Part shown: one piece after another, positions 53,823 to 54,236 of the stretch | Layout of the letters: every line of letters starts with the position of its first letter | Numbering within the stretch: position 1 is the first letter of the stretch | Origin: Patescibacteria group bacterium | GTDB lineage: Bacteria > Patescibacteriota > Minisyncoccia > 2-02-FULL-40-12 > IGHO2-01-FULL-4-A | Direction of reading: 5' to 3' | NCBI GenBank assembly: GCA_038064015.1 | Contig: JBBTUB010000025.1 | Coordinates: forward strand, 4,632-68,631 | Length of the DNA stretch: 64,000 nucleotides | Program-made: the position numbers and the translations under genes | The notes under the pieces: model-generated | Database searches by the model: none | Seen by the model: the letters and a program-made list of their open reading frames with translations, nothing else | Told to the model about the DNA's origin: nothing

Positions 53823-53906
53823 TGCGGATGGGGAGATTTGAACTCCCACAGCCTTGCGGCCACTGGCTCCTGAAGCCAGCGTGTCTGCCAGTTCCACCAC
53901 ATCCGC
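53823..53906 (-). tRNA. tRNA-Leu (anticodon CAG), long variable arm; CCA not encoded
   Basis: The reverse complement gives GCGGATG...CATCCGC acceptor, anticodon stem CTGGC/GCCAG, loop TTCAGGA, and T arm GGGAG-TTCAAAT-CTCCC. Confidence 0.85.
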
Positions 53907-53921
53907 AGGTTATTTTAATTT

Positions 53922-54161
53922 CTAATCTCGAAGCCTTTTGAGAAGTTCTTTTCCCTCTCCTGACTTCAAGTACTTTTCTCGTTCTCGAGCTTCAACTCTT
54001 GTCCGATATTTTTCAATCAAAACAGTTTTAAATGGTCGATAGGGAGCCGTAGTTTTTTCTTTTCCCTGTTGGTGCTGACCAATTCGTCGTTCGGTATTAT
54101 TTGTTAAACCGACATAGATATAATTTCTTGAAAGACTCGCAATTGCATATACATAGGACAT
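53922..54161 (-). CDS. GIY-YIG nuclease superfamily small protein (YhbQ/UPF0213-like)
   Basis: MSYVYAIASLSRNYIYVGLTNNTERRIGQHQQG. Confidence 0.75.
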   Translation of the reverse strand: MSYVYAIASLSRNYIYVGLTNNTERRIGQHQQGKEKTTAPYRPFKTVLIEKYRTRVEAREREKYLKSGEGKELLKRLRD

Positions 54162-54172
54162 CTATTGAATAA

Positions 54173-54236
54173 CCCTGAAGCTAGCGCGCCTGCCTGCCGG
54201 CAGGCAGGTCTGCCAGTTCCATCACAACCACAGACT
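54173..54236 (-). pseudogene. Partial duplicate of the tRNA-Leu 5' half (5' end to anticodon loop) with an inserted 20-bp palindrome
   Basis: Plus strand gaagcTagcgCgCCTGCCTGCCGGCAGGCAGGtctgccagttccaTcacaAcc versus gaagccagcgtgtctgccagttccaccacatcc in the intact tRNA. Confidence 0.55.

Follow-up and report, generated by a model that had tools for sequence, protein, structure and literature searches.

A GIY-YIG nuclease gene between a partial and an intact tRNA-Leu in a Patescibacteria genome: a probable minimal selfish cassette associated with a 20-nucleotide palindrome

A gene encoding a 79-amino-acid (aa) GIY-YIG nuclease is located between a partial and an intact copy of tRNA-Leu(CAG) in a 64,000-nucleotide (nt) stretch of DNA from a Patescibacteria group bacterium (assembly GCA_038064015.1, contig JBBTUB010000025.1, positions 4,632 to 68,631), referred to below as the window. 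The partial copy carries a perfect 20-nt palindrome, designated PAL. The question raised by this locus is how such a gene came to stand inside a duplicated tRNA and what the palindrome has to do with it. The locus is probably a minimal selfish cassette, composed of a bare-domain GIY-YIG nuclease gene, PAL and a redundant tRNA-Leu 5' half, which would work in the manner of the Ssn nucleases and spread by break repair. The way in which the cassette moves is inferred from the loci compared below.

The tRNA-Leu locus and its empty counterparts

The locus is composed of the following features, with coordinates given for the window.
54266..54294, minus strand: sigma-70-like promoter (TTGACA-17 nt-TAAGAT), within the SBP_bac_5 3' end
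~54233 to 54173, minus strand: whole partial tRNA-Leu copy with PAL inside, from repeat search and alignment
54209..54233, minus strand: part A of the partial copy, with 2 flank bases and tRNA positions 1-23 (acceptor 5' strand, D-stem 5' strand, D-loop) and 3 substitutions
54189..54208, no strand: PAL, perfect 20-nt palindrome CCTGCCTGCCGGCAGGCAGG, at the junction of the D-loop and D-stem 3' strand of the partial copy
54173..54188, minus strand: part B of the partial copy, with the D-stem 3' strand, anticodon stem 5' strand and anticodon loop (CAG), ending at about position 38
53922..54161, minus strand: gene for the 79-aa single-domain GIY-YIG nuclease (family 1; Pfam PF01541), G+C content (GC) 0.379
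53907..53921, minus strand: 15-nt spacer from the stop codon of the nuclease gene to the intact tRNA
53822/3-53906, minus strand: intact tRNA-Leu(CAG), from ARAGORN and Rfam (55.9 bits)
53792 to 51984, minus strand: RNase J gene

In the minus-strand direction, the SBP_bac_5 gene reaches its stop codon at 54269 and gives way to the promoter, the tRNA-Leu 5' fragment, the GIY-YIG open reading frame (ORF), the spacer, tRNA-Leu(CAG) and the RNase J gene. The succession of 5' copy, GIY-YIG ORF and full tRNA-Leu had been proposed in a preliminary description of this DNA, and ARAGORN, Rfam, Pfam, the repeat search and shuffled-sequence controls agree with it. The GIY-YIG gene is the sole ORF between SBP_bac_5 and RNase J, and the cassette of ~330 bp consists of this gene, the 20-nt hairpin and the spare half of tRNA-Leu.

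The SBP_bac_5 gene, the promoter, tRNA-Leu(CAG) and the RNase J gene are also present in three relatives, L238, L239 and L240, whose RNase J is 88%, 85% and 83% identical to that of the window, respectively. A promoter of the form TTGACA-17-TA(g/a)(A/G)AT and a TTGATCTC box are located ahead of tRNA-Leu(CAG) in these relatives, and no ORF, fragment or palindrome is found at the junction in any of them (the 3 loci showing the site). Because three close relatives have the promoter and the tRNA without the cassette, the cassette is an insertion, and since the promoter of the window stands ahead of the fragment, the insertion lies between the native tRNA-Leu promoter and tRNA-Leu. The comparison of tRNA-Leu loci of relatives for presence or absence, proposed in the preliminary description, thus found the cassette absent in all three. 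In the window, this native promoter now precedes the partial tRNA copy. The intact window tRNA and the tRNA of L238 are identical in their 5' halves, and the 15-nt spacer, compared by eye, resembles the native tRNA upstream flank of L239 (gaaattaaaataacct vs gaaaaattaaatatcg). The window gene and its context have also been found in an independent assembly of the European Nucleotide Archive (ENA) (L001).

A different occupant was observed at the same junction in the closest relative, L237 (ENA ERZ978390; RNase J 94%), where positions 1700-3030 contain another GIY-YIG gene together with an Asp/Glu racemase gene. The 86-aa protein encoded by this GIY-YIG gene is 35-36% identical to either of the two GIY-YIG proteins encoded in the window, the second of which is described below. 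The block of GIY-YIG gene, racemase gene and tRNA-Leu is bracketed on both sides by another hairpin family (cccagtaccacgtcgggtactggg, cccagaactctacgtagttctggg). The spot between SBP_bac_5 and RNase J that holds tRNA-Leu looks like a hotspot for different pairs of GIY-YIG gene and hairpin.

Two blocks of the partial tRNA copy were recovered by the repeat search, one matching 54208-54233 to 53883-53908 (26 nt, 88% identity) and the other matching 54174-54194 to 53869-53889 (21 nt, 86% identity); the offsets of the two blocks differ by exactly 20 nt. With PAL removed, 35/40 aligned positions are identical (tRNA positions -1 to 38), and the local alignment of fragment and tRNA scores 34 vs a maximum of 27 in 500 shuffles, so the likeness is not a chance match. 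The copy starts at about 54231-54233 and not at 54236 as first described. The best match of the fragment among 89 sampled tRNA-Leu genes is the tRNA of its own host (33/39), and the fragment is therefore a decayed local duplicate; import from a distant donor is ruled out for the window by the same match. Only 11 nt separate the fragment from the ATG of the GIY-YIG ORF.

PAL, an exact palindrome at 54189-54208, is a precise 20-nt insertion between ...GCAGA and CGCG... (tRNA position 23|24). The preliminary description had correctly recognized a perfect palindrome in the partial copy and had placed it in lieu of the D-arm; this placement is superseded, as the D-stem 5' strand and the D-loop (GATGGAACTGGCAGA) are intact and the insertion is clean. 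PAL forms a hairpin when folded as single-stranded DNA (ssDNA), and it is single in the window, even with 3 mismatches allowed (chance expectation 0).

The 79-aa protein is a GIY-YIG catalytic domain alone. The Pfam family PF01541 spans its residues 1-70 (E 2e-17), and the protein ends 9 residues past the domain, without a DNA-binding domain. The residues Y5, Y14, Y16, R26, H30 and E62 are invariant in 31 sequences, so that the Tyr, Arg, His and Glu catalytic residues are kept. An AlphaFold2 model built with 31 homologues has a compact GIY-YIG fold with a predicted local distance difference test score (pLDDT) of 96.6, and the nearest solved folds are those of UPF0213, the SLX1 nuclease domain and the I-TevI catalytic domain. 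No NCBIfam family matches above its cut-off, the sole match being TIGR01453 at residues 1-38 (16.7 bits vs 56), and the UPF0213/YhbQ profile matches distantly (E 2.5e-7). The ORF is compositionally foreign: its GC of 0.379 compares with 0.49 for the window and falls in the 2nd percentile of 240-nt windows. Full-length ORFs in 79/81 members of family 1, together with the invariant catalytic residues, indicate that the ORF is under selection.

Some further observations concern the sequence around the gene. The ORF 54181-54525 (minus strand) of the window and the protein P0002 (Candidatus Spechtbacterales, 133 aa) are gene-caller extensions through the tRNA fragment and PAL. The spurious N- and C-terminal peptides produced by such read-through (...WRNWQTCLPAGRRA..., ...MELADLPAGRQAR) are a recognisable annotation artefact of the element. 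An imperfect inverted repeat of 17 nt (82%) at 53797-53813 and 54163-54179 brackets the ORF and the intact tRNA; about 0.5 pairs of its 12-nt core (GGTTATTCAATA / TACTGAATAACC) are expected by chance in the region, by our own estimate.

Recurrence of the cassette and dispersal of the palindrome

A protein search returned 256 homologues of ~78-81 aa, which are 62-73% identical among the matches listed, and a scan of one genome per species returned at least 537 loci, the best 80 of which were analysed. These 80 loci belong to Bacteroidota (46), Patescibacteria (16), Ignavibacteriota (7), metagenome-assembled genomes (MAGs) labelled Gammaproteobacteria (4), Omnitrophota (2), Nitrospirota (1), Balneolaceae (1) and unclassified bacteria (3). 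A same-strand tRNA-Leu is located no more than 330 nt from the ORF in 74/80 loci and no more than 135 nt in 71/80, and tRNA-Leu genes with all five anticodons (CAG, GAG, CAA, TAG and TAA) are occupied. None of 27 distant YhbQ-like genes in viral contigs, examined as a control, has an adjoining tRNA. The architecture recurs in at least six phyla and in 70 or more genomes, and its carriers include cultured isolates of Algoriphagus, Hyunsoonleella and Flagellimonas.

Two classes of arrangement have been identified. In class 1 (47 loci), a 5' tRNA fragment is followed by the ORF and the tRNA, which usually begins 3-30 nt past the stop codon. In class 2 (21 loci), the tRNA is followed after 0-110 nt by the ORF and a 3' tRNA fragment, and the tRNA terminator is often duplicated too. 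The partial copies derive from the adjacent host tRNA and stand across the ORF from it; they have the same anticodon and are often identical to it at 24/24 positions. The fragments frequently run into the host flank, and several ORFs take their last codons and stop from duplicated host sequence. On its inner side, the duplicated block ends anywhere between positions 10 and 83 in class 1, with a cluster at 36-46 (about 22/47), and between positions 1 and 77 in class 2. The boundary in the anticodon loop reported in the preliminary description holds for the window (~38) and fails as a general rule, given the range of 10 to 83 across the 47 loci. Inspection of the loci by eye revealed no conserved, non-coding element end ahead of the ATG.

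The protein sequences follow no phylum structure, which points to mobility and horizontal spread: identity averages 0.588 inside a phylum and 0.579 across phyla, and the nearest neighbour belongs to another phylum for 29/80 loci. Different tRNA-Leu isoacceptors are occupied within one family, Cyclobacteriaceae, and two occupied tRNA-Leu genes (L021, L025) are present in one genome. A search of 2.9 million viral contigs yielded only 4 relatives; the 79-aa protein is chromosomal. The earlier suggestion of a selfish element that targets tRNA genes is borne out for tRNA-Leu by the empty sites, the linkage in 74/80 loci, the lack of phylum structure and the foreign composition.

Tandem ORF copies (two or three) are present in 10/80 loci. 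In the arrays L011, L019, L043, L064, L072, L073, L075 and L081, each ORF is followed by a PAL-bearing tRNA fragment, and in several of them a duplicated tRNA terminator also follows. The arrays suggest repeated insertion or unequal recombination at one tRNA-Leu.

PAL copies were counted with up to 3 mismatches and regarded as near an ORF when located within 260 nt of it. The 40.6 kb near ORFs contain 74 copies, whereas the remaining 316 kb contain 8, a 72-fold enrichment. A copy is present near the ORF in 56/80 loci, and an exact copy in 37 by our own count. Precise insertions, with both flanks contiguous in the adjacent tRNA and no duplication or loss, account for 55/71 copies. The insertion sites are D-loop positions 12-17 (26 copies), the junction of the D-loop and D-stem 3' strand at positions 22-23 (17 copies, including that of the window), the anticodon stem-loop junction at positions 31-33 (6 copies), the anticodon loop-stem junction at position 39 (3 copies), either side of the T-loop (4 copies) and position 75 (1 copy). 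A purine almost always precedes the insertion on the left, and a pyrimidine usually follows it on the right.

The palindrome is nearly identical in nucleotides across phyla. Variants of PAL have been detected beside family-1 relatives of 43-61% identity that were found by protein similarity alone, and the 43%-identical one abuts tRNA-Arg(ACG). No PAL is present in 237 kb of control loci, which comprise family 2, distant YhbQ-like genes and the empty-site relatives.

The exact 20-mer is also dispersed among unrelated contigs, at least 120 metagenomic and 35 viral ones. Dispersed copies with an adjacent GIY-YIG gene have the same architecture at tRNA-Asn, tRNA-Ser(GGA), tRNA-Lys and tRNA-Arg(TCG). 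No other gene family recurs near dispersed PAL; the largest cluster is the GIY-YIG family, ORFs read through PAL excepted. A direct match of at least 10 nt on both sides of PAL is found in 11% of dispersed copies vs 0.8% of control junctions.

Several simpler accounts of PAL were rejected. The palindrome does not always lie inside tRNAs, as its deletion restores a detectable tRNA in 1/210 dispersed copies, and it does not always lie in hairpin loops, for which dispersed copies are only modestly enriched (18% vs 9%, stem of 5 or more). An adapter or other artefact is ruled out by its occurrence in isolate genomes, by point variants and by biologically consistent positions. The likeness of the PAL arm CGGCAGGC to the tRNA-Leu D-loop TGGCAGAC (9/12 matches by eye) is not significant by our estimate, and no consistent covariation links the variants of PAL to those of the D-loop.

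Other features of the dispersed copies and of sister subfamilies were observed. Dispersed PAL (L082-L236) is often located inside odd, simple, tandem-like sequence (cgtacctcgtaaat, aatccgcaatccg, gaaaattgtaaatt, tctcgtctctcgct), and some viral contigs hold 4-6 copies (IMGVR_UViG_3300037242_000417). Copies within long ORFs are read as ...LPAGRQ... or ...ACRQAG.... The sister subfamilies L125, L131, L154, L175, L233 and L276 contain a 5' tRNA fragment with PAL in the D-loop, the ORF and an intact tRNA, and they are located at tRNA-Asn(GTT), Ser(GGA), Lys(CTT), Arg(TCG) and Arg(ACG). L175 contains two PAL copies, one on each side of the D-loop.

The second GIY-YIG gene and tRNA-Gln

A second GIY-YIG gene of the window is located near tRNA-Gln(CTG), and both stand where the preliminary description had placed them.
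4611..4901, minus strand: family-2 GIY-YIG gene, UPF0213/YhbQ-like, 96 aa (Pfam E 1.8e-17)
4902..5268, minus strand: AT-rich stretch (GC ~0.37) with a 111-aa hydrophobic ORF (4927-5262)
5269..5342, minus strand: tRNA-Gln(CTG), upstream of the family-2 gene on the same strand

The family-2 protein is a member of UPF0213 (PDB 1ywl, E 9e-16; 1zg2, E 4e-14) and is 36% identical to the 79-aa protein. Family 1 is distant from UPF0213/YhbQ (PDB 1ywl, 1zg2) and makes up a separate, tightly conserved clade linked to PAL and tRNA-Leu. The family-2 gene is outside the tRNA-Leu cassette, and its locus contains no PAL and no flanking hairpin of note. A degraded tRNA-Gln fragment, which the preliminary description had proposed to look for, was not found between 4400 and 5262 (Rfam E<=10; alignment score below the shuffle mean), nor was one found in the related loci L249, L259 and L271 (Rfam E<=10; alignment against shuffles).

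A tRNA-Gln(CTG) is present near the family-2 gene in 5/8 sampled contexts including the window, with differing neighbours and in both tRNA orientations. It lies 77 nt upstream of the gene on the opposite strand in the L249 set; in L259 and L271, it is followed by an unrelated ORF and then by the GIY-YIG gene and VanW; and in L278, which holds the closest family-2 homologue (81% identical), it ends 1 nt before the ATG on the same strand. In the other 3/8 contexts, family-2 homologues are located in tight operons away from tRNA (ABC_tran-GIY-NUDIX, hypothetical-GIY-PG_binding and FolC-GIY-CsoR), the last of which is present in the same MAG as the empty-site relative L239. The earlier reservation that the GIY-YIG genes might be YhbQ orthologues found at non-tRNA loci therefore applies to the second gene in these three contexts and not in the five with tRNA-Gln(CTG). 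The tRNA-Gln link is more than chance, yet it is without the insertion marks of the tRNA-Leu cassette; it may reflect either a conserved linkage or a second tRNA-targeting lineage.

Compared with L278, the window has an extra AT-rich stretch of 345 nt between tRNA-Gln and the gene (GC 0.366, 0.5th percentile), and its 111-aa hydrophobic ORF (4927-5262) matches no Pfam family above the cut-off. Unrelated ORFs (143 and 199 aa, no Pfam match) occupy the position equivalent to 4902-5268 in L259 and L271, and nothing is present there in L278; the stretch may be a variable cargo site beside tRNA-Gln. The last 53 nt of the family-2 ORF (4611-4663) are shared with the 3' end of purH, which runs convergently, and a similar overlap with a convergent gene, here for a glycosyltransferase, is found for the L278 homologue. 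It seems that these small nucleases owe their variable C-terminal tails to read-through into the sequence next to them. Elsewhere in the window, ~14 kb at 29000-43000 have a GC of 0.42-0.48 vs about 0.50-0.55 for the remainder, and the sign of the AT skew flips near 35 kb; this stretch may be an island or a strand switch.

Working mode, rival explanations and significance

Cleavage by the Ssn nucleases, ~94-aa proteins with a single GIY-YIG domain described by Chenal et al. (2025, Nat Commun; PMC11893778), is restricted to ssDNA beside a hairpin repeat (NTS/SRM), which flanks the ssn gene and occurs in hundreds of dispersed copies. The system has a host-level role in transformation in Neisseria and was likened by these authors to IS200/IS605 and REP/RAYT (PMC11893778). 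Like Ssn, the cassette encodes a single-domain GIY-YIG protein of about 80-95 aa without a DNA-binding domain, and has beside its gene an inverted repeat of 20-50 nt that forms a hairpin and recurs at scattered genomic positions. In both systems, as in REP/RAYT, the gene is nearly always accompanied by the repeat, and most repeats are far from the gene. Unlike the Ssn repeat, PAL is a perfect 20-nt palindrome without a conserved oriented flank. The cassette is further distinguished by its nesting at tRNA-Leu with partial tRNA duplication (the word "tRNA" has 0 occurrences in the main text of the Ssn paper, PMC11893778), by a mobility documented by empty sites, and by hosts that belong mainly to Patescibacteria and the Bacteroidota/Ignavibacteriota group rather than to Pseudomonadota. 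Ssn is the closest described analogue, and the cassette, although no proven Ssn member, appears by analogy to work like an Ssn/hairpin pair. The palindrome is the key cis element and the most informative part of the locus, and it ties the locus to Ssn-type hairpin-associated nucleases.

Other known systems share some of these properties. The cassette resembles the homing endonucleases I-TevI and Seg in its conserved catalytic residues and in presence/absence polymorphism at a conserved target gene, and differs from them in lacking a separate, linker-joined DNA-binding domain. The preliminary characterization as homing-endonuclease-like therefore holds loosely; it does not extend to a bare 79-aa domain without a DNA-binding domain, for which Ssn is the closer analogue. 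SegB has several domains in about 220 aa, a DNA-binding region among them; it is encoded in phage genomes and is not known to be associated with a tRNA duplication or a hairpin element, whereas the cassette protein is a bare domain of 79 aa and is chromosomal. Like the segB gene in the tRNA gene cluster of phage T4 (PMC2330249), the cassette gene is a free-standing GIY-YIG gene among or beside tRNA genes and outside introns, and it would likewise spread by acting on tRNA-gene DNA of genomes without the gene. As in tRNA-targeting integrative elements, which carry a replacement tRNA segment, insertion at or next to a tRNA leaves an intact tRNA and a partial duplicate. The cassette is unlike such elements in its lack of an integrase and its size of ~0.3 kb, and unlike tRNA attachment-site (att) islands, whose direct repeat is of the tRNA 3' end, in duplicating the host 5' half (or the 3' half and terminator) to variable extents. 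The REP/RAYT (Y1/HUH) and IS200/IS605 systems are also characterized by short dispersed hairpin repeats concentrated around one gene, by insertion without target duplication and by hairpin or single-stranded DNA as the likely substrate; they differ in having an HUH and not a GIY-YIG fold and a covalent tyrosine intermediate. The likeness to REP/RAYT concerns a possible working mode and does not extend to family membership.

A literature search on the PAL sequence, on GIY-YIG proteins with tRNA-Leu, REP or Patescibacteria and on follow-ups of SsnA returned no description of the arrangement, most subscription-journal papers being outside reach, and tRNA genes receive no relevant mention in a 2006 GIY-YIG survey. 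The nesting at tRNA-Leu, combined with partial tRNA duplication and a cross-phyla hairpin at loop junctions, appears to be undescribed.

In the proposed mechanism of the selfish cassette, the ORF would be transcribed from the tRNA promoter in the arrangement of the window, and the intact tRNA would be processed from the same transcript. By analogy with Ssn, the 79-aa nuclease would recognise its own hairpin and hairpin-forming tRNA-gene DNA when single-stranded and nick beside them. If hairpin-folded ssDNA is what is recognised, both PAL and the tRNA gene, which is highly transcribed, hairpin-rich and universally conserved, could serve as substrates. The break could be repaired by copying the occupied allele, which would amount to homing via conserved tRNA-Leu sequence; tRNA-Leu on both sides of the ORF would then act as homology arms, and this would account for the missing conserved non-coding ends. 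Alternatively, repair could leave a long, variable direct duplication. Only products keeping one intact tRNA-Leu would survive. PAL in the spare copy would mark sites of nuclease action and would interrupt a direct repeat otherwise able to delete the cassette.

A bolder version is tentative and at present rather doubtful as a whole: that the 79-aa protein and PAL together form a previously unrecognised minimal mobile element, a GIY-YIG counterpart of REP/RAYT or IS200/IS605. In such an element, the nuclease would act on single-stranded, hairpin-folded DNA, paste the hairpin scarlessly at loop-stem junctions and insert the gene that encodes it into tRNA genes. Being universally conserved, the sequence of the tRNA would provide a portable target, and half of the tRNA would be duplicated so that the host survives. 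Sister lineages would do likewise at tRNA-Asn, Ser, Lys, Arg and possibly Gln.

Several findings weigh against a selfish cassette that works like Ssn and spreads by break repair. The SRM consensus HGTCWYN(0-2)YYVSBRHN(0-5)WNVSBRGN(0-2)RNCYNB has 0 matches on both strands of the whole window. A GIY-YIG nuclease forms no covalent intermediate, and the scarless insertion of a 20-nt hairpin is therefore unexplained by the GIY-YIG enzyme alone. A terminator often lies between the tRNA and the ORF in the class in which the tRNA comes first, and co-transcription is therefore not general. A GIY-YIG gene is located within 400 nt of only 9/169 dispersed PAL copies (among the matches listed), and the enrichment of PAL beside the ORF could come in part from the lack of neutral tRNA-like targets other than the pseudo-tRNA fragments. 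Occupation of one and the same site is seen in three species of Algoriphagus (L020, L022, L049) and in Muricauda/Flagellimonas (L052, L053, L060), where the ORFs are intact and the flanking fragments decayed; this retention fits long vertical inheritance and possibly a benefit to the host.

The retention in these genera is the starting point of the rival explanation that survives best, although it is unlikely: the gene would be a domesticated host gene for a beneficial Ssn-type factor, for example one limiting recombination or transformation at PAL, which stands beside tRNA-Leu for co-expression and has the fragments and PAL as by-products. Such a role would match the host-level role of Ssn in transformation in Neisseria (PMC11893778), and intact ORFs (79/81) persist even beside flanking fragments and PAL copies in advanced decay. 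A domesticated gene is, however, difficult to reconcile with its absence at the orthologous site in three close relatives, with the various tRNA-Leu isoacceptors occupied inside Cyclobacteriaceae, and with the lack of phylum structure, the tandem arrays and the foreign composition of the ORF.

It is considerably less probable that PAL is moved by another enzyme preferring hairpin loops, so that the pseudo-tRNA hairpins of the cassette merely collect it and the link of PAL to the GIY-YIG gene is indirect. The 9/169 dispersed copies with a nearby GIY-YIG gene would be expected of such a mobiliser, as would the location of PAL in loops or loop-stem junctions and the modest loop enrichment of dispersed copies. 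Against it, the largest gene cluster near PAL is the GIY-YIG family and no other recurs; PAL variants follow relatives of 43-61% identity and are absent from the 237 kb of controls; and hairpin repeats around single-domain GIY-YIG genes are the published Ssn pattern (PMC11893778).

A remnant of a tRNA intron with a homing endonuclease, or of an integrase island with an att site in the anticodon loop, both raised in the preliminary description, is very improbable. The end of the copy near the anticodon loop or the start of the variable arm (36-46), here and in about 22/47 other loci, is what such a remnant would predict. The intron is ruled out by the complete tRNA after the ORF with no 3' exon, by the 11 nt between the fragment and the ATG, and by the lack of any intron family, group I or II, in an Rfam scan of 53600-54500 at E<=10, which returned only the intact tRNA and a chance-level SNORD48 match (13 bits, E 6.1). 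The att site is ruled out by the lack of an integrase, the size of ~330 bp, the duplication of the 5' half and the variable boundaries (position 10 to 83), with a second class that duplicates the 3' part. Chance similarity or an assembly artefact, for which only the short length of the fragment speaks, is virtually out of the question, as 0/500 shuffles reach the alignment score, the independent assembly L001 agrees, and the architecture is repeated in 70 or more genomes, cultured isolates among them.

If the selfish-cassette explanation is true, Ssn-type mini-nucleases would gain a concrete life-style outside Neisseria, as self-propagating cassettes riding tRNA genes across phyla, the tiny genomes of Patescibacteria included. 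The 55 mapped PAL insertion points, in the D-loop, on both sides of the anticodon loop and in the T-loop, would provide a map of probable enzyme action on folded ssDNA, and a 79-residue enzyme with a perfectly conserved 20-nt hairpin site would be an attractive ssDNA tool. For genome annotation, the tRNA-Leu fragments, the "LPAGRQ" peptide artefacts and the short contig breaks beside these genes would share one cause.

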